This document shows, in pieces, positions 2,301 to 19,849 of a DNA stretch of 19,911 nucleotides. The position numbers and the translations under genes are program-made. The stretch is from NCBI GenBank assembly GCA_041736305.1, contig JBGSTX010000191.1, positions 1 through 19,911 on the forward strand, given 5' to 3'. How positions within the stretch are numbered: position 1 is the first letter of the stretch; each line of letters opens with the position of its first letter. The notes beneath the pieces were generated by a model. The model did no database searches. It saw only the letters and a program-made list of their open reading frames with translations, and was not told where the DNA came from. This stretch comes from Oligoflexus sp. (GTDB lineage: Bacteria; Bdellovibrionota_B; Oligoflexia; Oligoflexales; Oligoflexaceae).

Positions 2301-2459
2301 CTTCTAGAGCTTAAGGTCTGTCAAGTGGGCCTCGCGCGCTCTCCATTTTCCGTGATTCGAAGGACTAAGTAGGTTATGGTGGCCTGCAGAATGGCCTTGT
2401 TTTGAGCCCCCAAACAAGGCGAAAAGCAAAAAGCGCAGAAGAGAAGGAACGGGTTGCCT

Positions 2460-2948
2460 ATGTCGAAAGCTGAATCTTTCAAAGATTTGTGTCTGAAGAC
2501 GCTCAAAGAATCGGGAGCTCGTCTGACTAAACCTCGGCAGGCTCTGATAGATTGTTTAGCCATCGCGGACGAACCGCTATCTCCCAAAGAAATTTTGCAG
2601 CGCACCGAAGCTATGCTCGAAGAAAGCGAAAGCATCGATACCGTAACCGTCTACCGGATCCTCGATCGCTTCTACGAACTCGGCCTGGTCCATCAGGTAG
2701 CTCCTACCGGTGATTATATTGCCTGCACCCACCTTGCCTGCGCAGCCAGCCCGCATATCATGACCTTCTGCACAGGCTGCCAGAGTGCTAAAGAAATCCA
2801 CGTTCCTGAAGCGGTTATGGCCCCTATGCTTTGGTACCTGAAATCACAAAATGGCTTCGAAGCCAAAGAGCATCTCTTCCAGCTCGATGGACTCTGCGCC
2901 CTATGCCGAACCAAGACTGAAGTCCATCCTAACAAAGGATTTAACTGA
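2460..2948 (+). CDS. Fur-family transcriptional regulator (Fur/Zur/PerR type)
   Basis: LKESGARLTKPRQ, a TVYRILD recognition helix, GLVH, and C-terminal CTGC and CALC zinc motifs. ATG at 2460 is preferred to TTG at 2454. Confidence 0.9.
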   Translation: MSKAESFKDLCLKTLKESGARLTKPRQALIDCLAIADEPLSPKEILQRTEAMLEESESIDTVTVYRILDRFYELGLVHQVAPTGDYIACTHLACAASPHIMTFCTGCQSAKEIHVPEAVMAPMLWYLKSQNGFEAKEHLFQLDGLCALCRTKTEVHPNKGFN

Positions 2949-2959
2949 AGGCTTTTACC

Positions 2960-3922
2960 GTGCAGCAGCCCAGCGATCAGATCAGCCCCGAAGATGTAGC
3001 CTACCGTCGAGCTCGCCGCGTCTGGCTCAGCATTGGTATAGGCACCTCGCTGCTCTTTCACCTCTTGCTCGCGTATCTCATGGTGTTTGCTCCCGCTTGG
3101 AAACGGCCGCGCTTCCCTCAGCAGGTCCCCGTTCGCCTGGAATTCAAACAGAAAGAATCGGAGTCAGCTAAGAAAGATAAAAATAAGCGGCCGCAGAAGC
3201 AGGAACAAACCGAAACGCGGCAGATTATTGAAGCACCCCTGATTCCTACCGCCAAACCCGAGGTTCCCGCCCACCTCGGTGCGCAAGATCATAGGACCGC
3301 TCGCGAGCAGAAAACTCTGCCGAAGCAAGGTCGACCTGCGGCGCCGGCCACCGCTTTGCAAAATGGAGCGCTGCGGCTGCAGCGAGCTCCCGAGGCTGAA
3401 GGTCGCATCGAAATGCCGACTAAGCAAAAGAAGAGCGAACGCTACGCTGCTCTGCTGCCTGAAAAGCTCGAAATCGTCAACGAAGGCCACAACGATTATA
3501 TACCGAATAAGAATATACCTGTAGGGCCGGTCCTAGACGTGAACACCACGGATTTTCGCTTTATCGGCTACTTCACAGCGGTGCGGAAGCTCGTCGACCT
3601 CGCCTACTACGACGTTGGTCCAACTCTGCGCGATTCGCCGCACGTTCGCGAGAAGATCGAGGAAGCTGGGAAAGCCCGCTTTCAAGGTGTGAGCATCGTT
3701 GAACTCAAGGTCATGCGCAGCGGCCTGCTCGTCGATACGCGGCTCGCCAAGTCCTCGGGCGATAAGGATATCGATGAGTTCTGGACCCGCATCCTCAATC
3801 TAGCTGCTCCCTATCCACCGCTCCCTCGCGACTACCCAGGGGACGAGCTGGTGTTCACTTACGCCCTCTACTATGATTTCGCCTACGAAGGCAGTAAGCC
3901 CAGCACACGTTTCATGTTTTAA
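2960..3922 (+). CDS. TonB/TolA-like membrane-anchored protein with a C-terminal TonB_C-type domain
   Basis: N-terminal TM helix with SLLFH (the SxxxH motif of TonB/TolA anchors), a K/E/P-rich spacer, and a C-terminal 'VNTTDFRFIGYF...G.L....L.KSSG.KDID.......LAAPYPPLP' domain. Starts 11 nt after the Fur stop codon. Confidence 0.8.
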   Translation: MQQPSDQISPEDVAYRRARRVWLSIGIGTSLLFHLLLAYLMVFAPAWKRPRFPQQVPVRLEFKQKESESAKKDKNKRPQKQEQTETRQIIEAPLIPTAKPEVPAHLGAQDHRTAREQKTLPKQGRPAAPATALQNGALRLQRAPEAEGRIEMPTKQKKSERYAALLPEKLEIVNEGHNDYIPNKNIPVGPVLDVNTTDFRFIGYFTAVRKLVDLAYYDVGPTLRDSPHVREKIEEAGKARFQGVSIVELKVMRSGLLVDTRLAKSSGDKDIDEFWTRILNLAAPYPPLPRDYPGDELVFTYALYYDFAYEGSKPSTRFMF

Positions 3923-4102
3923 AACCCCTGCGCAAAGTTTGATCGATATTGCCTTCCAGCGTCTAAGATTTAGGCAGCTGCGCGAGCCCTGCACAAGAAA
4001 CTTACACCGCTCCTCAGTCTTCTCCGACACTTAAGAGACGGAAAAAACTTTGCACAGTGGGCTTCGGGCTACTGCTAGTCCCCTCTTTGAAAGGATTGAT
4101 TG

Positions 4103-4591
4103 ATGACGAGAAAAACTGCTGCGATCTTGCTCGCGTTCGGCCTCGCTGGTTTTGCTTGCACCGATGATGCAAAAAAGATCGAAGAACCGATTCAGGCTGA
4201 AGCACAAAAAGCAGGAGCTGATGAATTTACAGTCGACGCTAAGACCGGCAAACTGCAGTTCACTGCTGAAATCGTGTACTTCGGCTACGACGAAACAACT
4301 CTCACCAAAGAGGGAATGGCCCGCCTTGAATCTATCGCTTCACACATGAAAGAAAATGATAAATTGAAACTTCAGATCGAAGGCCACTGCGACGACCGCG
4401 GCTCTACCGAGTATAATCTCGCCTTAGGCCAACGGCGTTCTGATTCCGTCCGGAAGTTCCTCCAGACCATCGGCATCGGTTCTGACCGCCTCGCTTCTAT
4501 AAGTTTTGGCGAAGAAAAACCTGCCGAAGCTGGCCAGGGCGAGCAGTTCTGGGCGAAGAACCGCCGAGCTGAGTTCGCTTTCAATCGTTAA
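4103..4591 (+). CDS. pal: Peptidoglycan-associated lipoprotein (OmpA-like domain)
   Basis: Lipobox GFAC; motifs VYFGYD, IEGHCDDRGSTEYNLALGQRR, SFGEEKP and WAKNRRAEF. ATG at 4103 follows an AAGGA RBS. Confidence 0.93.
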   Translation: MTRKTAAILLAFGLAGFACTDDAKKIEEPIQAEAQKAGADEFTVDAKTGKLQFTAEIVYFGYDETTLTKEGMARLESIASHMKENDKLKLQIEGHCDDRGSTEYNLALGQRRSDSVRKFLQTIGIGSDRLASISFGEEKPAEAGQGEQFWAKNRRAEFAFNR

Positions 4592-7904: not shown

Positions 7905-10247
7905 TTAGCTTTCAATGCTCACTCTCCAGATTCCACCTGGCTGCCCAGGAATAAAGAAGATTGCTAGTGCTTCGCCCTTCTCAAATTCGAATCCCAACTT
8001 CCATTCGTCAGGGGAAAGGTTTCGATCATTAACGCTTAGCCGGAAGTTTTGACCTTTAGAGATCCGCTTCATCTTCAGAACCACAGGCACGGTATCCCTG
8101 CCCTGGAAGCGCGACTCTAGATCGAAACTACATCTCGACCCCGTCCACTCGAGCTCCAGATGACCCTGCCATGCGTTGTACCAAGGCGCGGAGCAAGATT
8201 GAAGGTTCTTCACTTCAGGTGGATAAGACCAGTCCTGAACCCTGGCACTGATAGCATGCGCATCGGAGTTGATACCCACCAGCGAGACGAAGGCCTTTTC
8301 ACCACTTGTACGTCCACCATTCGTCACCTGCACCGAAACCAAAGCCGAGTGACTCACCTGCGAACTCCAGGTCGTTCGTGTTTGGTCATGGAATTCATAG
8401 GGCTCACGACTCTGGGGCCAATGGGAAAACTGCCACTCGTAGCCGTGCCAGGAGACATCGAAGTTGAGAGCATGCTCGCCTGATACCCGAGGTTCAGCCC
8501 AGGGCTGGGCAAAAGCACTGTATATATAAGGCGCATTTTTCTTACCATCCTTCACTTTCGCTACGGCTATCGTCTTGTCCCACTTGTTGAATGGAGCATC
8601 ACGATAGCCGTACCAGTTGCCCTCTAAATCTTTGCCGTGACTGGGGCGAAAGCGGTAAGCTTCGTTCGACATCGGATTCCAAAGCTCGAGGGAAGCTCCA
8701 TCCTGCGCATGATTCACAGGATCGCTGCGCGCACCTGCAATCACCGAAAGCTCGGCGATCTCATAGCTATCCGCCCCGAAACCCTGCTGATCCGGCGAAT
8801 AAAAAACCTGACGAAATGCTGTGCCGTCCGGATAGACAGTCCAGATTTCATCGCTTCGTGCCAAAGATTCAATGCCGCGCTGCTTTTGCTGCGTTGGAGC
8901 TAGAGTTTGAGCAATAGTCTGATAAGCGGGATTAAAGAGGTAAGCTCGCCAGTGAATAACTTTGCGAGCCGGTGTGTCGGCTAAAATTTTGACTTCGTTG
9001 TTCCAGCGGAGACCATCGGACATCGCTTCAAAACAACCCTTGGAAAAGCGCCTGTTTTCGGGCCAAAGCTCGACGAATGAATTAGTCAGGAGCAATTGGT
9101 CATTGATATGCCAGGCAGGTACGTTGTTCATTTCCGACCAGAAGACGAGACGGTATTTCTTAGAAGCCTTAAAATCCTGACCAAACTGAACTTGCCACGC
9201 GTCGCCATTAAACCCTGACCAGTTGTAGGGACGCTTGATGAGCCGAAAGCTCGTGCTCTCCTCTTCCGGCTCCTCGTGCGCTTGCTGCCGTGAAAGCAAT
9301 TCCGTGAATCGAGCTTCTTCGCCGCCATCGCTCGCATCCATCACTAAACCGACGAAGTAGGAGTCGTGAGCTCCAAGCCAAGAAGCTAGAGGAGCTAAAT
9401 TCATCCAACCTTCTGCAGGAGATACGCCATGCAAAATATCTTTCTTAACCGTGTAACTGAGATAGAAAAAAGGCTGTGACTTCCCATCTAGGAGAGAACT
9501 GCTGTGATGCAGAATCTTCAGGCGACCCGTCGATTCAGTGAAGGGGACGCGATAGTCATTTCTTATCGTATCTCCAGGCGAGAAAGAACCATCGAGCAGC
9601 GCGGTATATCGCTTCTCTTTCTCCCATGAGGTGAGACGGCCGGTCCGATCTAGCACCTGCTTTTCATAAGACTCACCGCTCTGGGAGGGCTGTTGGTCGA
9701 GCGCTTTTACCCGCAAGTAGCCATTATCGTCGCGGTCTATAAGCAGCGCGATATACGCGTTGTAATTCGGCTCTAAACGACCCTTACCTAAATCCTGGGC
9801 TGCGAAGAGGATGAGGCCCTTGGCCTTGCTCAAACCATCGCGGAGGTCGAATCCAACCTCTTCCTCAAAATGCCCTTTGATCGGAGTTTTCATGACGATT
9901 CCCTGCAGACCAGAGCCGGACGATCGTAATTCCCATCCACCGTACTTGCTTGGCCACCATGAAGGCTGCGAACAGGCTTCTTCGAGACAAAAACTTGTCC
10001 AGAGCTCACTTCTTAAGCTCTTCGAAAGATTGAGGGTACATGGATAGCTTGAGTTCTCAAGAGCTGAAGATTTGGCTTCGCAGATATTTCCTTGCTCGTC
10101 ATAGGCGGGAGGTAAGAGTGCAGCGATGGATTCTTTCCAAGGCCCGAGCTCAAGCGGTGGATTAGGATTACAGGCATAGGCTGAGAACAAGATGCATTTC
10201 AGCATGAAGATACGGTAACACTGTCGGGCTCCCAATATCTGAAGCAT
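7905..10247 (-). CDS. Large hypothetical exported protein (possible lipoprotein), beta-rich and Trp-rich
   Basis: 780-aa ORF with a GGAGG RBS 10 nt upstream of the ATG and a possible lipobox AYAC. No catalytic motif recognised. Confidence 0.8.
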   Translation of the reverse strand: MLQILGARQCYRIFMLKCILFSAYACNPNPPLELGPWKESIAALLPPAYDEQGNICEAKSSALENSSYPCTLNLSKSLRSELWTSFCLEEACSQPSWWPSKYGGWELRSSGSGLQGIVMKTPIKGHFEEEVGFDLRDGLSKAKGLILFAAQDLGKGRLEPNYNAYIALLIDRDDNGYLRVKALDQQPSQSGESYEKQVLDRTGRLTSWEKEKRYTALLDGSFSPGDTIRNDYRVPFTESTGRLKILHHSSSLLDGKSQPFFYLSYTVKKDILHGVSPAEGWMNLAPLASWLGAHDSYFVGLVMDASDGGEEARFTELLSRQQAHEEPEEESTSFRLIKRPYNWSGFNGDAWQVQFGQDFKASKKYRLVFWSEMNNVPAWHINDQLLLTNSFVELWPENRRFSKGCFEAMSDGLRWNNEVKILADTPARKVIHWRAYLFNPAYQTIAQTLAPTQQKQRGIESLARSDEIWTVYPDGTAFRQVFYSPDQQGFGADSYEIAELSVIAGARSDPVNHAQDGASLELWNPMSNEAYRFRPSHGKDLEGNWYGYRDAPFNKWDKTIAVAKVKDGKKNAPYIYSAFAQPWAEPRVSGEHALNFDVSWHGYEWQFSHWPQSREPYEFHDQTRTTWSSQVSHSALVSVQVTNGGRTSGEKAFVSLVGINSDAHAISARVQDWSYPPEVKNLQSCSAPWYNAWQGHLELEWTGSRCSFDLESRFQGRDTVPVVLKMKRISKGQNFRLSVNDRNLSPDEWKLGFEFEKGEALAIFFIPGQPGGIWRVSIES

Positions 10248-10506: not shown

Positions 10507-10534
10507 TGATCGTAGCAGTTCTCTGCTACGATCA
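10507..10534 (-). terminator. Hairpin terminator of the cytochrome/YceI/barrel operon
   Basis: Perfect 12-bp stem TGATCGTAGCAG-ttct-CTGCTACGATCA, 13 nt downstream of the stop at 10548. Confidence 0.7.
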
Positions 10535-10547
10535 CTTGCGGACTTAA

Positions 10548-11681
10548 TTAGATAGCGTACTGGAAAATGAACCAGGCGCTGTCGTAGGCTTTAGAGCTTA
10601 CGGTATAACGCGTTACCTTTTCCCACTGAGCCGTGAAAATCCAGTGCGGCCGAGGTGACCACTGCGCTCCCGGACCTATTCGCTGCACATCCAGCTTCGA
10701 AGCATCGGTATCGCTCTTCTTGGCTTGATGGAAGAGATAGAGGTCAATGCCCTTGTAAACCTGATAGCCGACGCGATTGTAGGAGGCGAAACCTTCGGTT
10801 AGCGCCACATTTTTGGGAGCTGTCCGGGTCCAGTCAAACTCGCCGAGCCAGTAGAGATCTTCGTTTAGACCGAGGGCCCAGAAAATACCGTAAAGTTCGC
10901 GTCCGACGTTATCGGTCGTCTCTCCATAAAAGTAGCTGAGTCCAACCTTGTACTTGGAGTTGATAAAGCGGCTCGCGCTGAGAGCCACACCCTTGTCGCT
11001 GACGGCATCCTCATCATCTGGCCTGCCGCCGACGCCTGTCACAGCCACGGCATACTCTTCGGTCTGATAATTGAATTCGAGGTTATAAGTTTCACTGTTC
11101 TGATCCCAGCCGATTCCCCGTCGGATCTCGGAGGTGTGATCGGGAATCATAAGACCGAAGTTCTTGTAGAAACGTCCCGCTCGCACCGAGTAGCCTTTGC
11201 CGATAATACCCAGGGGGACCAGTACGTAGTGGCGGCGACTGCTCCACTTATCGTCATCATTGGTGTTCGGTGAACCCATATCGCGACCTATAGAGGCTAC
11301 GACCGAGTAGCCCTCAGTCACCCATCCAAAGTCGACATCAGCTTGCATGAGAAAATACTTGCCTTGCTTGACCTGAGGCGTATCCGAATAGGTCTGAATC
11401 GAGCGGATATCGCCGCCGATACGAAAGGCTTCGGGTAGAGCTACGGGCGTATAAAAGGGCAGATGCTCGTTTTCCGTGCTCCAAGTCGAAAGAACTTCCT
11501 TACCTAGTTCACGACCGTAGTTCGTCAGGAGGCCTCCACCTGACGGACTTACGTGACAGGAGCTACAGTTCCCATAGCCGTGGCGAACCATTTCCGGAAA
11601 AGCTTGGAGAGACGAGGCGGCTGCATTGAGCAGAGCAAAGGCAGCAATTATCTTCAGTAGAAAATGAGTTAGGATTCTCAC
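10548..11681 (-). CDS. Outer-membrane beta-barrel fused to an N-terminal monoheme c domain (Cyc2-like cytochrome-porin architecture)
   Basis: Signal peptide ending LQA, then FPEMVRHGYGNCSSCHVSPSGGGLLTNYGR. The remainder shows alternating amphipathic beta-strands and ends in an aromatic-rich strand WFIFQYAI. The GTG start overlaps the upstream TGA (GTGA). Confidence 0.78.
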   Translation of the reverse strand: MRILTHFLLKIIAAFALLNAAASSLQAFPEMVRHGYGNCSSCHVSPSGGGLLTNYGRELGKEVLSTWSTENEHLPFYTPVALPEAFRIGGDIRSIQTYSDTPQVKQGKYFLMQADVDFGWVTEGYSVVASIGRDMGSPNTNDDDKWSSRRHYVLVPLGIIGKGYSVRAGRFYKNFGLMIPDHTSEIRRGIGWDQNSETYNLEFNYQTEEYAVAVTGVGGRPDDEDAVSDKGVALSASRFINSKYKVGLSYFYGETTDNVGRELYGIFWALGLNEDLYWLGEFDWTRTAPKNVALTEGFASYNRVGYQVYKGIDLYLFHQAKKSDTDASKLDVQRIGPGAQWSPRPHWIFTAQWEKVTRYTVSSKAYDSAWFIFQYAI

Positions 11682-12271
11682 AGAGGCTTCACCTCAGCCT
11701 GAGATTTGACGATGACATCGACGGTTTCTGCGACAGTGATTTCAGCAAATTTCGGCGTATCGATTTTGTAATCAGCCATCTTAATTTTGAAACTGAATTC
11801 ACAGTCTACTTTGCCGCCAGCAGCTGGCTTGGTCGTCATCGTTCCGCTCACCGGCGCTTCGACTCCATGCAAAGTGAGTTTGCCGGTGAATGGTGCGCTT
11901 GTCACAGCCGTCTGATTCGCTGCCGAAGGATCCTTCCAGGGCACTACAGTTGGGGTGAACTTAGCCACGGGAAACTTTTCGACTTCCAGATACTTGTCGC
12001 GCATGTGGCGGTCGCGAAGTCCAAGTCCGGTTTTGAGCGTTTTTAAATCGAAGTCTAAAGCGCCTTCCACAGATTTTTCGTCGGTGATCTTCAACTGGCC
12101 TTCAGGGCCTGGGCCTTCGCCGGTGATGACGAGCGCGCTAGGGTTGCCGAGAGCCTTGAACTGAACACTGCCCTGCGCAGAGCTAAAGACAAACTGAGCT
12201 GGTTTGGCCCAGGCAATGGTCGATAGAAAGAGGCCCCCAACTATGGTCAGACCTAGGTGCTTGTGCAACAT
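11678..12271 (-). CDS. YceI-family (polyisoprenoid/lipid-binding) periplasmic protein
   Basis: Signal peptide (AWA); 'SVQF', 'LKTGLGLRDRHMRDKYLEVEKFPVAKF', 'GKLTLHGV' and 'ADYKI' motifs. ATG 12271 follows an AAGGAG RBS. Confidence 0.92.
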   Translation of the reverse strand: MLHKHLGLTIVGGLFLSTIAWAKPAQFVFSSAQGSVQFKALGNPSALVITGEGPGPEGQLKITDEKSVEGALDFDLKTLKTGLGLRDRHMRDKYLEVEKFPVAKFTPTVVPWKDPSAANQTAVTSAPFTGKLTLHGVEAPVSGTMTTKPAAGGKVDCEFSFKIKMADYKIDTPKFAEITVAETVDVIVKSQAEVKPL

Positions 12272-12316
12272 GAATATCTCCTTTGATGATGGAATGGCAG
12301 ACAAGAAGGTACACCC

Positions 12317-12730
12317 TCACGGAGTCTCGACAGCGCCCTGCTCGATCCAGGTCTTGAGCAGCTGAAGTTTACTGGCGGAAAGGGATCCGCCTTGAGGCAT
12401 GGTTTTGTCATCAAGCGTAGTTTTCTTCACTTTAGCCAATTGATCTTTGACCTTCGCATAGGTATCGAGCGTTACACCACCTAAAGCCGTGGTCGCGGAG
12501 TGACACACAAGACAGGAAGGTTTAAAAATCTGCGACTCTACTTCGGCGAAGCTGATTTTAGTCGTGGGTGTACCGGGATCGGTGCCCGTTCCCGGATCGG
12601 TCGTGTCGCCGGTCTCCTCATCCTGATTCTTCTCATCTTTGAAGTTACAGGAAACTTGAAAGAGCGAAGCTAAAAGCAAAGAGCAAAGGGTCGATTTTCT
12701 AAGGGCGGCGGCAAAGGTGCAGATGCGCAT
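12317..12730 (-). CDS. Lipoprotein monoheme c-type cytochrome (planctomycete-cytochrome-C-like domain)
   Basis: Lipobox-like QVSC, a T/D/P/G linker, ISFAEVESQIFKPSCLVCH, a distal Met in TMPQGG, and C-terminal LLKTWIEQGA. Confidence 0.85.
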   Translation of the reverse strand: MRICTFAAALRKSTLCSLLLASLFQVSCNFKDEKNQDEETGDTTDPGTGTDPGTPTTKISFAEVESQIFKPSCLVCHSATTALGGVTLDTYAKVKDQLAKVKKTTLDDKTMPQGGSLSASKLQLLKTWIEQGAVETP

Positions 12731-12891: not shown

Positions 12892-14634
12892 TTATCGCGC
12901 CTTATACCGAAGACGCTCAGGCAAGGACTGAAAGACTTTTCGGAAATAGTCCTGATTCTCGTGCTTATCGATCCAGCGATAGGGCTTGCCCGTCTGGGGA
13001 TCGGCAGCCTCTCGCACGTGAAAATAAGCCCAACCCCAGACACCGGCATAGCCTTGATCGTGGAGGAATTCATAGTGAGTATTGTCGAGCATCTCATTTT
13101 GAGCGCCAATAATGTTCCAATGTTCACCGACGATCAAAGGCTTGTCCAGCTGCCAGTGGGCTTTTCCTAACTTGAACATGTTCACATCGGCGTCTTTTTC
13201 CGCATCGTTCCATTCGGGATAACCGTGAACCTGATAAAAATCGAGTGTACCCTGGGGGTCACCACCGGCTGCGATCAACTCTTCATCGCTGTAGTAGTTG
13301 CGAGTGCCATGACTCTTCATACTTATGGCGGTGTTGTAGGGAATACTGTGAGCGCCAGCCGAAACTTTGGCCTGGGAATCAAGCCGGTGAATGGCGCCTG
13401 CGATGCGATTGATCGAGCGGAGGACGCGCTCGTAGGAGATTTCCACGGTCGTTAAGGCCTTATCGTCGACTATAGCCTTCTTGAGGAAGTCCCATTCCGA
13501 AGGGTATTCGTCGGTAAAGTCCTTGTAAAGGTAGAGATTGAAACCGCTGTTCTGCGTTCCGACGAAATGCCAGCCTTTGTACTTTATAGGCGTGTAGGAA
13601 CCGTCTCCGGTGTTGATCGCGAACTCGCTGCGGCGTCGATCATCCAGATAGCTCAGTGAATTTTCCCGCCAGCGGTAGTCGCCGTATTCCATTGCATACT
13701 GATAGTTCCAGTAGAGGCGCCAGTGTTTAGCGACTCCTTCCGGTTCATTGAAAACTTCCCAAGAAAGAATCGCATCTTTGTACGTTTCATTCGTGCCAGG
13801 CATCTTCTGATCCATCGCCTTCACCAAGGGGGTCAGCGCTTTATCGATGTACTGCTGCAGGGCTGCATCGTCGTTGAAGATGCGAACGACCCGATCACGC
13901 GACTCAATGGGATGCCCGCTTCTTACGCCCAGGACATCATGCGACCAGAGATTGATGTTGATCAGGAGTCCGTAGTCTTGATAGGCGGTCCGCACGAGCC
14001 ACTGCAAATCTTCGATGGTTCCCGCAGGCAGACCACTAACCGAAGCTTCCGCTGGGGTTCCTTTGCTATCGAAGCTCGGATTCCGGCTGCCGTCGACGTG
14101 CAACCAGAATCGATAGGAATTGACACCCGAGGCGGCGAGGTCCTTGAAAGCATTCCTCAGCAAGTTGCGCATCTCCTCTTCGCTGCTGCCGTAGGGGTTG
14201 TCTTTGAAGGGAATAAATTGAACGTTGCCGATGTTAACGCCGGTCAGAAAGATATGCTTGCCTCGGTGTTCGAAGAGATTCTCAGTGGAAGGTTTAGACG
14301 GCCCGTCGGAGGGTGCATCTGTTAGCTTGCACCAATTTGTCGCTGCTGCATTCGCCCAGTTCGCATCGATTTTTTTGTAGGCAATGCCGTCAAACTTGAA
14401 GGTGTCTCCGTAGCCAAGACCATTGGCTGCGGATTTACAAGCCAATGTGGCGATGCATGGTGCGCCATACTGATCTGGCTTATCTTTTTTATAAGGTAAA
14501 GCATCTTGGTAATAGAGAGTGCCATAGCCTTCTTTATTCGCAGCTTTTTCGCGACAGAAGTCGTAAGCAAATACCTGAGATGCTAGCGTAATAAAATTGA
14601 GTGCGAAAAGTCCTAGAGCCGATTGCCAACGCAT
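12892..14634 (-). CDS. Secreted glycoside hydrolase family 5, resembling GH5_10 endo-beta-1,4-mannanases
   Basis: Signal peptide; GVNSYRFWLHVDGS..PSFD, acid/base WEVFNEPEG (E297), NYYSD..LIAAGG...GTLDFYQVHGY, nucleophile KPLIVGEH (E504), GYAGVWGW. GGAGGT RBS. Confidence 0.85.
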   Translation of the reverse strand: MRWQSALGLFALNFITLASQVFAYDFCREKAANKEGYGTLYYQDALPYKKDKPDQYGAPCIATLACKSAANGLGYGDTFKFDGIAYKKIDANWANAAATNWCKLTDAPSDGPSKPSTENLFEHRGKHIFLTGVNIGNVQFIPFKDNPYGSSEEEMRNLLRNAFKDLAASGVNSYRFWLHVDGSRNPSFDSKGTPAEASVSGLPAGTIEDLQWLVRTAYQDYGLLININLWSHDVLGVRSGHPIESRDRVVRIFNDDAALQQYIDKALTPLVKAMDQKMPGTNETYKDAILSWEVFNEPEGVAKHWRLYWNYQYAMEYGDYRWRENSLSYLDDRRRSEFAINTGDGSYTPIKYKGWHFVGTQNSGFNLYLYKDFTDEYPSEWDFLKKAIVDDKALTTVEISYERVLRSINRIAGAIHRLDSQAKVSAGAHSIPYNTAISMKSHGTRNYYSDEELIAAGGDPQGTLDFYQVHGYPEWNDAEKDADVNMFKLGKAHWQLDKPLIVGEHWNIIGAQNEMLDNTHYEFLHDQGYAGVWGWAYFHVREAADPQTGKPYRWIDKHENQDYFRKVFQSLPERLRYKAR

Positions 14635-17569: not shown

Positions 17570-19849
17570 TTAAAGAGCACGCAGCTTGAAAGCCACATCG
17601 TTTTTAAAGGCGGGCAAAGACAGCAGGAGCCGTCCCTTTTTGTTGGTCTCGACCTTTTCAGTGGTAAGCACTTCACCCTTGTAGGTGTCCCACGTCTCAA
17701 ACTGATAGACCCCCTTCTTGAAGCCATCCATGTAGAACTGAATACCGCGGAATTCATAGGGCCCGGGTCTATCCTTCATAGTCATGCCCTTGGTGTCACA
17801 AATCCAACCCATGGCAAAGCTAGAGTTCTTGAGCCCGTAGAAACTCAGCTTCTCTTTGTGGTCTTTACGGATCTTCACCGGCCAGCTCTCCTGCACCGCG
17901 CGCAGATCCATTCCGCGTCGATCGATGCCCGCCAGGAACTTGGCTAGGGCTCCGAAGTGCCTATACAGCTGGTTGGGCTCGATATGCGTATCCCACCACC
18001 AGGGCATTCCATTGCCCGCTACAGGCTGCATGGCCTGAGCCCAGATTCCTGCATGGATGAAAACGCCCTGCTTATCCTGAGCATCGACCCCATCTTTAGA
18101 ATCATAACCGAACTCGCCGAAGAAAAAAGGCTTATTGAAACGTTCGAAGCGAGGAACAACCTGGGCCATCGTCTTCCAGACCCGATGCTGGTAGGCATGA
18201 TATTGGGTGAAATCGATGACAGGCAGCTCGTAAGTCGCCTTGTTATAATAGTCGTAGTAGCTGGTCGTAATCATACGTTTATAGGGATCTTGCTCACGCA
18301 TCCAATTGCCAATATCTTTATGGAACGCGGCATCGTTCTTCGGCGAGAAGCCATCGGCCCAGTTGATCTCATTGAAAATCTCCCAAGCCATGATATGAGG
18401 GCTATAGCCCCAGCGGGCGATGATATAGCGCAGACGCTTCTTGAAATTTTCACGCGCCTTCAGATTGGTGAAAAAATCCTGTGGCTTGGCCAGGGGACCG
18501 CCCTGTTCCTTATTGTAGGGATTGTTCTGCCATTCGGGGTTGACCTTCGTACTCAGTCCGCCGTGAAACTCCATGACGAGCTGGGTGTAGATGCCGTTGA
18601 GGGCGAGGAGATCAATCGTCTCGTCGAGCTTCTTCGCATTTTCTAAATTGTAGTTGCCAAGACCCTGATAGCGACCCATCACCTTCCATTCAATGCCGAA
18701 ATTCCAGGGGGCCATCCAAATGCGCGTCCAGTTTTCGCCGTTTTCCTTCATCGACGCGAACATCTTCTGGTAGTTTTCAATACTATCCCAAGCGGCATTC
18801 TGGCCTATAGGGTAGTAGAACTTGCCACTATCGAAGCTGAAATATTTCTTATCCTTCGGGTCGACCCGTAAAAAGCCGTCGCTAGTAGCGGGCCCGACCT
18901 CGAAGCTCAAGTCTTTACTGAGGGCACTGCCTTTGGGATTCTTGACTTCAATTTGATAAGTCCAGCGACCCGCTTCGGTCGGGGTAAAACGCAAGCGCCA
19001 GTCGGGTTTTTCTACGGGAGCGGCGAGGCTGACTTTGCCATCATAGAGGAAACCGTCCACCTCTTTTACTGCACCAGAGGGGGCTTTGAAGCGAGCCCGC
19101 AGCAGAATCTCCTTCGCTTCGTAGGGATCATGATAGGGAGCCTCGAACTGAACACCTAACTCCATTTTCTCGTAGACCTTAGTCGCGCTCTCGAGAGTCT
19201 TGATCTCTCCGAGCTTAGGCTCGGCATCGATCTTGGCTGCGACGCGTTTTGGTGGCTGGGGCATAGTCGGCTTTCCATTGGAACGCACGTTGTCGAAAAA
19301 GAAGATTCCGGCGTTGGCTTCCCCGGTGTGGACCAGGAAAATCAATGAGCCGAGATCTACCTCTTTAGGCACCGAAGTCTTGTACCCCCAATTGGATGCT
19401 TTAGACTTCAGATCAGCTCCATCAATTTTGAAGCTCAGTCCTTTATTCCAACCAGCCTTCAGCGCCAGCGGCTTCGTTTCGTAGTATTGATCGGCTTCGA
19501 TAGCTAAAGCCAGTTCTACTCCCGAAGTAGGCAGCGGGTTGAATACGTCGACGTAAATCTCGCCGAGATCATGAGCCTTGCCGCCTAGCTCGCGACGGAT
19601 GACAAATTTCTTCTGACCCTTGGAGCCCTCTGGGGTGAAACTGGCCTGCAGAGCCTTCTTCCCCTCAGAGACATTATCGCTGGAGAGTTCGAGCTTGGCG
19701 CTATCACCCCATTCCTTGTTTTCCCAGCGCAGATTCTTTTCAAACCCATCGATCAGGAAGGTAGAAGTAGAAGTAGAAGCTGATTTGTCGGCGGATAGTC
19801 CTCTGGAGCCAATGAGCAGCAAAGCTGCTAAAGCTATGAGTTTGTGCAT
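17570..19849 (-). CDS. Secreted multidomain clan GH-A (GH5-like) glycoside hydrolase: N-terminal CBM-like beta-sandwich, DUF5060-like Ig domain, TIM barrel, C-terminal beta-sandwich
   Basis: Signal peptide; 'LIDGFE...FFDNVR' sandwich; 'PY....I...A.F.APSG....V.GF...WRLRFTPTEAGRWTY'; catalytic-domain motifs 'GENWTRIW', 'RYIIARWGYSPHIMAWEIFNE', 'DFTQYHAY', 'KPFFFGEFG' and 'MPWWWD'. Confidence 0.85.
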   Translation of the reverse strand: MHKLIALAALLLIGSRGLSADKSASTSTSTFLIDGFEKNLRWENKEWGDSAKLELSSDNVSEGKKALQASFTPEGSKGQKKFVIRRELGGKAHDLGEIYVDVFNPLPTSGVELALAIEADQYYETKPLALKAGWNKGLSFKIDGADLKSKASNWGYKTSVPKEVDLGSLIFLVHTGEANAGIFFFDNVRSNGKPTMPQPPKRVAAKIDAEPKLGEIKTLESATKVYEKMELGVQFEAPYHDPYEAKEILLRARFKAPSGAVKEVDGFLYDGKVSLAAPVEKPDWRLRFTPTEAGRWTYQIEVKNPKGSALSKDLSFEVGPATSDGFLRVDPKDKKYFSFDSGKFYYPIGQNAAWDSIENYQKMFASMKENGENWTRIWMAPWNFGIEWKVMGRYQGLGNYNLENAKKLDETIDLLALNGIYTQLVMEFHGGLSTKVNPEWQNNPYNKEQGGPLAKPQDFFTNLKARENFKKRLRYIIARWGYSPHIMAWEIFNEINWADGFSPKNDAAFHKDIGNWMREQDPYKRMITTSYYDYYNKATYELPVIDFTQYHAYQHRVWKTMAQVVPRFERFNKPFFFGEFGYDSKDGVDAQDKQGVFIHAGIWAQAMQPVAGNGMPWWWDTHIEPNQLYRHFGALAKFLAGIDRRGMDLRAVQESWPVKIRKDHKEKLSFYGLKNSSFAMGWICDTKGMTMKDRPGPYEFRGIQFYMDGFKKGVYQFETWDTYKGEVLTTEKVETNKKGRLLLSLPAFKNDVAFKLRAL

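Follow-up and report, generated by a model that had tools for sequence, protein, structure and literature searches.

Based on the analysis of a 19,911-nucleotide stretch of DNA from Oligoflexus sp. (contig JBGSTX010000191.1; the whole stretch is referred to as the window), we describe a trio of genes that encodes a lipoprotein cytochrome c, a lipocalin of the YceI family and an outer-membrane pore protein in which a short monoheme cytochrome region is fused to a porin. The pore protein belongs to a large protein family that has the architecture of Cyc2 and that, judged from sequence comparison, is probably a remote relative, a sister family of Cyc2. We propose, with a confidence that is evenly balanced, that the trio forms an outer-membrane redox module that would deal with metal or oxidative stress in the cell envelope and would not serve iron lithotrophy. 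The elements on which this proposal is built are the following.

12317..12730, minus strand: lipoprotein monoheme cytochrome c, 137 amino acids; lipobox Cys 28, CLVCH at residues 73-77, Met-Pro at 111-112
12500..12514, minus strand: CLVCH heme-binding motif of the cytochrome c, residues 73-77, invariant in the cytochrome alignment
12278..12283, minus strand: Shine-Dalgarno sequence AAGGAG for the YceI ATG at 12271, read from the sequence
11678..12271, minus strand: YceI-family lipocalin, 197 amino acids; candidate signal peptide at residues 1-22; assigned by Pfam, AlphaFold2 (AF2) and Foldseek
11678..11681, minus strand: GTGA in which the start of the pore gene overlaps the YceI stop, from the sequence and the coordinates of the open reading frames (ORFs)
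10548..11681, minus strand: fused monoheme cytochrome-porin, 377 amino acids, GTG start; signal peptide 1-27, a heme region of about 50 residues and a 16-strand beta-barrel at 86-376
11553..11567, minus strand: CSSCH heme-binding motif of the pore protein, residues 39-43
10507..10534, minus strand: perfect 12-bp hairpin with a 4-nt loop, 13 nt past the pore gene stop, without a U tract

The three ORFs are co-oriented on the minus strand in the order cytochrome c, YceI, pore protein. A spacing of 45 nt separates the cytochrome c stop from the YceI ATG, which has AAGGAG 7 nt ahead of it; an alternative, longer start, a TTG at 12304, is also open. The GTGA overlap suggests that YceI and the pore gene are translationally coupled, and a YceI gene abutting or overlapping the pore gene is the rule in most related loci. 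Beyond the pore gene, the hairpin at 10507-10534 has a minimum free energy of -21.8 kcal/mol in a 91-nt context (z = -2.94; 3 of 200 shuffles fold equally well). For want of a U tract it was rejected as a canonical intrinsic terminator, and it was not among the calls of a terminator scan of the window; it may mark the end of the transcript or stabilise it. Since the three-gene arrangement recurs in many genomes it is not a product of chance, and a single operon is the best explanation. The initial annotation of the window had reported three co-oriented genes with a 45-nt gap, a GTGA overlap and a 12-bp hairpin, and every detail checked against the ORFs and the sequence proved correct. It had also noted a single CxxCH in two of the products, which are the CLVCH of the cytochrome c and the CSSCH of the pore protein, and the export of all three. 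Export signals of the window proteins were assigned by eye, and signal sequences are present in all three, with candidate cleavage between AWA and KP in YceI and between LQA and FPE in the pore protein; the signal sequence of the cytochrome ends at Cys 28, the conserved lipobox Cys of its family. The genome from which the window derives is a 5.0-Mb assembly in 392 contigs, 92.7% complete, in which the pore gene is present once and YceI three times, and it encodes cytochrome c assembly genes (three PF01578 matches above the cut-off). A search for sequencing runs that contain the stretch listed no RNA set.

What kind of protein is the third member of the trio? The pore protein has no match in Pfam or NCBIfam, a PDB sequence search with the profile of its family gave chance-level matches only (E at least 0.27), and an Atlas search returned unnamed clusters only. 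An AF2 model, calculated with a family alignment (A1) of 37 of 120 listed homologues, has a predicted local distance difference test score (pLDDT) of 83.6 and a predicted template modelling score of 0.80 and displays 16 strands spanning residues 86-376. Foldseek matched the model to the 16-strand porins OmpU, OmpC and OmpF, with OprP (2o4v) at rank 22 (E 4.2e-10, TMq 0.62). The family is sizeable: a word-index search recovered 350 homologues at E <= 1e-3, all unnamed and from Oligoflexia or Bdellovibrionota-type assemblies, and an exhaustive search 1501 representative clusters at E <= 1e-3, 274 of them reaching 1e-30. In a phylum sample of 116 genomes, 54 have a pore match at E <= 1e-3, 44 of them at 2e-36 or better, and all 12 sampled genomes of the window's genus carry one. 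Most family members are 355-385 amino acids long. When 9 proteins under 340 amino acids were excluded from the 264 returned for counting, each of the 255 full-length homologues proved to have exactly one CxxCH within its first 110 residues, and the motif is invariant in the alignment (37/37), so that the heme site whose conservation the initial annotation had marked for checking is kept among the barrel homologues without exception. The strongest conservation coincides with the mature N-terminus, A-F-P-E-M-V-R-H-G-Y-x-N-C-x-x-C-H-V-S-P-S-G-G-G-x-L-T-x-Y-G-R. A second conserved stretch maps to the long loop between strands 5 and 6, with invariant F171, G176 and H182, followed by E197 and E202. 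In classical porins this long loop folds into the lumen and, because it is conserved here, a functional site inside the pore is plausible on the model.

The initial annotation had called the pore protein a Cyc2-like porin. Keffer et al. 2021 (PMC8406198) define Cyc2 by a signal peptide, one CXXCH, a 16-strand OprO/P-like porin and a length of at least 365 amino acids, mostly at least 400, together with A-X-P-X-F-A-R-[Q/K]-[T/Y] before the heme site and P-X-L four residues after the CXXCH. A reference set was assembled by scanning metagenome contigs with the back-translated motif: the scan matched at least 120 stretches, from which 80 loci were retained, and all 80 motif-selected proteins have a signal peptide, the canonical motif and a single CxxCH, with lengths of about 395-580 amino acids where the frame is complete. 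A tblastn search for Cyc2 in plasmid records produced chance-level matches (E at least 2); the best Ralstonia plasmid match was rejected as a Cyc2, being unrelated high-GC coding sequence, and a profile search of that record was empty. Aligned by hhalign with 40 Cyc2 proteins, the pore family scored a probability of 94.5% (E 8.1e-8, 113 columns), and a control, the lipoprotein cytochrome family, which also has a signal peptide and a CxxCH, scored 15.6% against Cyc2 and 6.7% against the pore family. When both alignments were rebuilt from 12 residues ahead of the first Cys, and thereby freed of their signal peptides, the pore family and Cyc2 aligned in register through the heme region and about half of the barrel; the score fell to 69.5% (E 4.3e-5, 218 columns), which makes the link weaker.

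As in Cyc2 of Acidithiobacillus ferrooxidans and Cyc2PV-1 of Mariprofundus, a signal peptide is followed by one CxxCH about 12 residues past the cleavage site, in a very short cytochrome region, and by a 16-strand porin that resembles OprO/OprP; the two families share an A-x-P-x-hydrophobic-hydrophobic-R-x5-CxxCH spacing and then P...L-x-x-[FY]-G. The window protein itself has the signal peptide (by eye), the single N-terminal CxxCH, the 16-strand porin fold and a length, 377 amino acids, at the low end of the Cyc2 range. However, the strict P-x-F-A-R-[QK]-[TY] motif is found in none of the 255 pore homologues, a point against close kinship: where the Cyc2 motif sits, the pore family has A-F-P-E-M-V-R-H-G-Y with equal spacing, that is, the motif P-E-x-V-R-H-G-Y. 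Instead of P-X-L it has CxxCH-V-S-P-S-G-G-G-x-L, the Pro standing two residues past the His and the Leu after a Gly-Gly-Gly insertion. As the strict motif is absent from all 255 and P-X-L is replaced, the pore protein is, by its sequence, not a Cyc2 member under the published definition, and a sister family is the better description. Thus the fused monoheme-porin architecture seen in the initial annotation holds, whereas the published Cyc2 motif is missing. The pore proteins also differ from Cyc2 in length (about 370 versus 400-520 amino acids), in their Bdellovibrionota hosts, in their partners, YceI and a PSCyt1-like lipoprotein cytochrome, and in a neighbourhood of copper genes rather than that of an iron oxidiser. 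Neither YceI nor this type of cytochrome lies beside any of the 80 canonical Cyc2 genes, 63 of which have at least 700 nt of upstream sequence.

Two further protein types from the same phylum resemble the pore protein. One is a family of about 460-535 amino acids with two N-terminal CxxCH motifs (L085-L095; for example L086:2373-3950:+ and L089:2391-3878:+), found as weak N-terminal profile matches (E 1e-4 to 1e-6); the second CxxCH is followed by P-x-G-G-G, the same signature as in the window pore protein, and the one member tested has no Pfam or NCBIfam family. From their sequences these proteins look like diheme cytochrome-porins. Their genes are solitary or lie beside small cytochrome c lipoproteins (L094, L095), and YceI adjoins only in L095. 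The other is a diheme variant of about 390 amino acids (L096-L099; for example L097:1852-3018:+) that neighbours a divergent small protein with four CxxCH motifs (L097:1291-1737:-), with which it may constitute another porin-cytochrome pair.

The YceI protein matches Pfam PF04264 with E 2.4e-19 (70.6 bits against a cut-off of 23.7), a match confirmed in the genome profile search, and its AF2 model (pLDDT 91.4) is an extended lipocalin-like beta-barrel. The top Foldseek matches, at E 1e-11 to 6e-10, are TT1927b, a polyisoprenoid-binding protein of Thermus, a polyisoprenoid-binding domain of Saccharophagus, E. coli YceI and BcnA, a Burkholderia protein; among them are 1wub (E 9.4e-12, TMt 0.78), 1y0g (E 3.9e-11) and BcnA 5ixh (E 3.2e-10). 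By analogy, the window YceI may carry a quinone: PMC9113575 reports that a Neisseria YceI homologue binds ubiquinone-8. One of the YceI paralogues in the same genome (L082:1468-2094:-, contig C137) lies in convergent orientation to the genes of an MbnB/TglH/ChrH-type enzyme (PF05114, E 1.2e-77) and of a DUF2063 protein, which we take to be the enzyme pair of copper-binding ribosomal peptides such as methanobactins and bufferins, and this neighbourhood gives a second, independent hint that YceI and copper are connected. The 137-residue cytochrome remains below the Pfam thresholds, with 16.2 bits for Cytochrome_CBB3 (cut-off 27) and 14.4 bits for PSCyt1 (cut-off 22), and a longer homologue, L043, exceeds both cut-offs with 34.0 and 34.1 bits, respectively. 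In an alignment (A5) of 20 of the 62 related cytochrome ORFs found beside pore genes elsewhere, C73, C76, H77, M111, P112 and W128 are invariant and the lipobox C28 is nearly so. Because the lipobox Cys, CxxCH, Met-Pro and Trp are kept and longer relatives pass Pfam, the protein is a lipoprotein c-type cytochrome; the Met of Met-Pro 111-112 is likely to be the distal heme ligand, and ligation is probably His/Met. The number of heme motifs in these 62 neighbouring cytochrome ORFs varies: one in 21, two in 31, three in 8, four in 1 and none in 1. The identities given by the initial annotation, c-type cytochrome lipoprotein, YceI lipocalin and fused monoheme-porin, all hold.

How general is the association of the three genes? 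Synteny was scanned with one genome per species, and the best 80 of 325 pore loci were analysed. In single-sequence searches, 76 loci had at least 700 nt of upstream sequence, and in 58 of them YceI is the co-oriented gene directly upstream. Among the 70 loci with at least 1500 nt, 52 have a co-oriented cytochrome c homologue upstream and 44 have both partners; the three genes are contiguous in 28. Profile searches raised the figures to 63 of 80 for YceI and 64 of 80 for the cytochrome c. Recurrence of the trio in other genomes, which the initial annotation had named as a check, is therefore borne out, the carriers being predatory bacteria and their relatives. That annotation had also known of no characterised system with this composition; a literature search, with subscription journals and supplements lying outside it, found none either, and no description of the pore family or of the gene trio.

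The neighbourhoods of the relatives suggest a physiological context. All ORFs of the 80 loci were clustered and the cluster representatives were scanned for families. At least one copper gene, encoding a CsoR-like repressor, a CopA ATPase, a multicopper oxidase or a cupredoxin, is located within 4 kb of the pore gene in 29 of the 80 loci, and 14 of these 29 have the CsoR-like repressor. In known cases CsoR repressors leave the DNA when Cu(I) rises. CsoR-family genes occur in 24 of the 116 phylum-sample genomes, in 1-3 copies each; because they are rare in the phylum, their position beside the pore gene is far from chance, with the caveat that the sets of genomes compared are not identical and that relatedness makes the genomes non-independent. 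An extended cassette is found in many Pseudobdellovibrionaceae and in some other lineages. Its order is CsoR-like (PF02583), DUF6488, a diheme cytochrome c lipoprotein, a 400-residue ankyrin plus cupredoxin-like protein, YceI and the pore protein, followed by a multicopper oxidase or by a CopA-type P1B ATPase that has YHS and HMBD domains, in some cases together with DUF305 proteins. The ankyrin-cupredoxin protein of about 400 residues (L043:2226-3431:+, with 17 related ORFs) is exported, and its C-terminal cupredoxin-like domain has a conserved C-G-x-H, the usual axial position being variable. The DUF6488 protein is represented by L060:880-1464:+ and its relatives, likewise within extended cassettes.

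This copper context of the relatives, which the initial annotation had not anticipated, shifts the likely role away from iron lithotrophy, and we propose the following mechanism for the trio. The first 50 or so residues of the mature pore protein would hold one covalent c-type heme, which is probably placed against the highly conserved loop between strands 5 and 6, inside the pore or beneath it. On entering the pore, a redox-active solute would exchange an electron with this heme; in the reading that we favour, this solute would be Cu(I) or Fe(II), a metal ion in its reduced form. From the pore heme the electron would pass to the His/Met heme of the lipoprotein cytochrome c and on to the respiratory chain. 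Cyc2 has been proposed to exchange electrons with periplasmic cytochromes, according to a review. YceI would act as a periplasmic lipocalin holding a polyisoprenoid, most likely a quinone. Its task would be to link the module, as a second sink or source of electrons, to the quinone pool of the inner membrane, or else to act as a local antioxidant. The module would help aerobic heterotrophs and predators that face copper, metal or oxidative stress to defend the envelope or to keep it in homeostasis. A part in envelope metal stress, in which Cu(I) or Fe(II) would be the donor, is preferred to lithotrophic growth because of the copper context, which includes the CsoR-like repressor. The analysis itself establishes the order of the genes, their conservation, the predicted folds, the heme motifs, the remote resemblance to Cyc2 and the copper genes near relatives. 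As the initial annotation had done, we infer a trans-envelope electron conduit with a quinone shuttle, and we infer with it the attachment of the heme, the direction of the electrons, the substrate, the ligand of YceI and the contacts between the proteins. A bolder version of this model, which we regard as unlikely, makes the family the first non-iron branch of a Cyc2 superfamily, a copper-responsive outer-membrane heme porin that would oxidise Cu(I), or cycle copper between redox states in another way, at the cell surface and would be wired to the respiratory chain through the lipoprotein cytochrome c and a quinone-ferrying YceI. If true, YceI would be a soluble quinone shuttle between an outer-membrane heme and the inner-membrane quinone pool.

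Several observations weigh against a stress-related redox module and its copper colouring. The window operon has no copper gene within 4 kb, a profile search of its genome, which is 92.7% complete as noted, found no CsoR-family gene, and 51 of the 80 loci are without a copper gene within 4 kb. In a quick IQ-TREE maximum likelihood tree of 78 pore proteins (3 of 81 were excluded as shorter than 330 amino acids), copper-linked loci appear in several clades, but are concentrated in one Pseudobdellovibrionaceae clade of 19 rows; the window pore protein falls in an Oligoflexaceae clade of 10 rows, in which a copper-type (YHS) neighbour occurs at one locus only. YceI is missing from the nearest Oligoflexus relatives (L002-L006, L009), where the cytochrome gene directly precedes the pore gene, and it is therefore not obligatory. 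The heme region is poorly modelled (pLDDT below 50 at residues 22-51). A search for longer fused forms recovered no YceI-pore or cytochrome-pore fusion, which is weak evidence, and yielded one 787-residue protein with sigma-54 activator domains. A complex prediction with mature pore protein, mature YceI and heme scored 0.19 and 0.11 against a mark of 0.32, without controls, and says nothing either way. Our even-handed confidence in the stress module is due mainly to the window copy itself, which has no informative neighbours; the adjoining window proteins, of 580 and 780 amino acids, both have no Pfam or NCBIfam family.

Among the other explanations, the pore protein could be a plain Cyc2-type Fe(II) oxidase. 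Dissolved Fe(II) would be oxidised at the pore heme, and the lipoprotein cytochrome c would relay the electrons to a terminal oxidase, either for extra energy or so that Fe(II) does not reach the periplasm; YceI would be an accessory. The Cyc2 architecture and the remote profile similarity speak for such an oxidase, as does a periplasmic c-type cytochrome partner, which the review also gives for Cyc2; in addition, the best DNA read set for the stretch is labelled as a hot-springs metagenome, although this may just reflect the source sample. We nevertheless judge it unlikely. The defining motif is absent from all 255 homologues, the partners of the pore gene are foreign to the 80 canonical Cyc2 loci, the informative neighbours are copper genes and not oxidase or carbon-fixation genes, and the family resides in Bdellovibrionota, which are not known as iron oxidisers. 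At the other extreme, the pore might have no redox function at all: it would be a specific porin with a structural or sensor heme, or would take up heme, porphyrin or metal, and YceI would be a lipid chaperone. General and specific diffusion porins have this same fold, and the invariant loop residues H182, E197 and E202 could bind metal. However, the strictness of the CxxCH (255/255) and the conserved c-type cytochrome partner (64/80) favour electron transfer, and no TonB-dependent receptor or ABC importer is conserved alongside, so that we consider a non-redox pore very improbable.

Copper stress is a known cause of lipid peroxidation, and a further alternative would suit the copper context for this reason. 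The trio could be an outer-membrane counterpart of the BcnA-LcoA system, in which ubiquinol held by YceI quenches lipid peroxyl radicals and the heme-porin and cytochrome c re-reduce or re-oxidise the quinone in place of cytochrome b561. YceI is indeed the neighbour most tightly coupled to the pore gene (58/76 loci, often overlapping). The pairing of YceI with a heme protein has a precedent in the BcnA/cytochrome b561 model: PMC9113575 proposes that BcnA quenches lipid peroxyl radicals together with cytochrome b561, and states that linkage to a heme protein gene is general among YceI genes and that loss of the pair raises lipid peroxidation. Here, however, a c-type heme in a porin takes the place of the membrane b561, and no match to b-type cytochrome families came from the scan of 13 large window ORFs, so that the YceI-b561 linkage is missing; in some clades YceI is absent although the pore and the cytochrome c are there, and a heme-bearing pore suggests a soluble and not a lipid-bound substrate. 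Such a counterpart thus appears quite unlikely to us. Least probable of all, and by our estimate a very long shot, is the export of electrons to extracellular enzymes or substrates, for example oxidative polysaccharide-degrading enzymes, as proposed for Cbp2D/E of Cellvibrio. It would fit with the Saccharophagus YceI domain among the top fold matches, which is implicated in plant cell wall breakdown, and with the upstream neighbour at 12892-14634, which looks glycoside-hydrolase-like by eye and recurs in two other loci, L001 and L002. This neighbour, though, has no Pfam or NCBIfam match and is common to three loci only, no lytic polysaccharide monooxygenase or carbohydrate-binding module was seen, and most loci have no glycosidase neighbour.

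Several known systems come close to the envelope redox module that we favour. Like the Cyc2-rusticyanin-Cyc1 chain of A. ferrooxidans, encoded by the rus operon, the extended cassettes of the relatives join a heme-porin, a diheme cytochrome c and a protein with a cupredoxin domain; in contrast to it, they contain no oxidase genes, the cupredoxin is fused to ankyrin repeats and is variable at the axial position, and a CsoR-like repressor precedes the cassette, which CopA or a multicopper oxidase adjoins; the window operon has no cupredoxin. That the iron chain of A. ferrooxidans comprises a porin, a cupredoxin and a diheme cytochrome is given in a review. With BcnA-LcoA and other yceI-yceJ type pairs the trio shares a YceI lipocalin gene coupled to that of an envelope heme protein, for which a quinone-based redox role is proposed (PMC9113575); it differs in having an outer-membrane c-type heme porin and a lipoprotein cytochrome c, where those pairs have an inner-membrane di-heme b561. 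In MtrCAB, PioAB and MtoAB, too, electrons cross the outer membrane by way of heme inside a barrel, but these systems use, according to a review, a separate decaheme cytochrome in a 26-strand porin and not a 16-strand porin with one fused heme. Finally, in Cbp2D and Cbp2E of Cellvibrio japonicus a YceI-like ubiquinone-binding domain is joined to a c-type cytochrome for extracytoplasmic electron transfer; unlike the window trio, these proteins are secreted, contain several domains, among them carbohydrate-binding modules, and have no porin. New here is a one-heme porin that resembles Cyc2 but has another motif and new partners, and whose role is likely a non-iron one.

Why would such a family matter? 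Cyc2 serves as a marker gene for neutrophilic iron oxidation in metagenomes. A large sister family with the Cyc2 architecture in organisms that are not lithotrophs would be a warning that Cyc2 calls based on architecture, or made loosely, may not mean iron oxidation. It would also be a tractable object for finding out what other functions a one-heme porin may have. YceI, which is very common, gains a second recurrent heme partner besides cytochrome b561, which strengthens the idea that YceI proteins take part in the redox chemistry of the envelope. Because some carriers are named Bdellovibrio strains, for example that with the complete genome of L080, genetics should be possible.

The remainder of the window adds some minor observations. 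At 2454-4591 on the plus strand a Fur-family regulator (PF01475), a protein with a TonB C-terminal domain and an OmpA-family protein are encoded in a row, about 6 kb from the operon, and no link to it was seen. Large exported-looking proteins are encoded on the minus strand at 17570-19849 and 7905-10247, one with a DUF5060 domain only and the other without a family. The 580-residue gene product at 12892-14634 (minus strand), whose gene is upstream of the operon across a 161-nt gap, has no match in Pfam or NCBIfam and displays, by eye, a glycoside-hydrolase-like N-E-P motif; in L001 and L002 its gene is again found upstream of the cytochrome gene.

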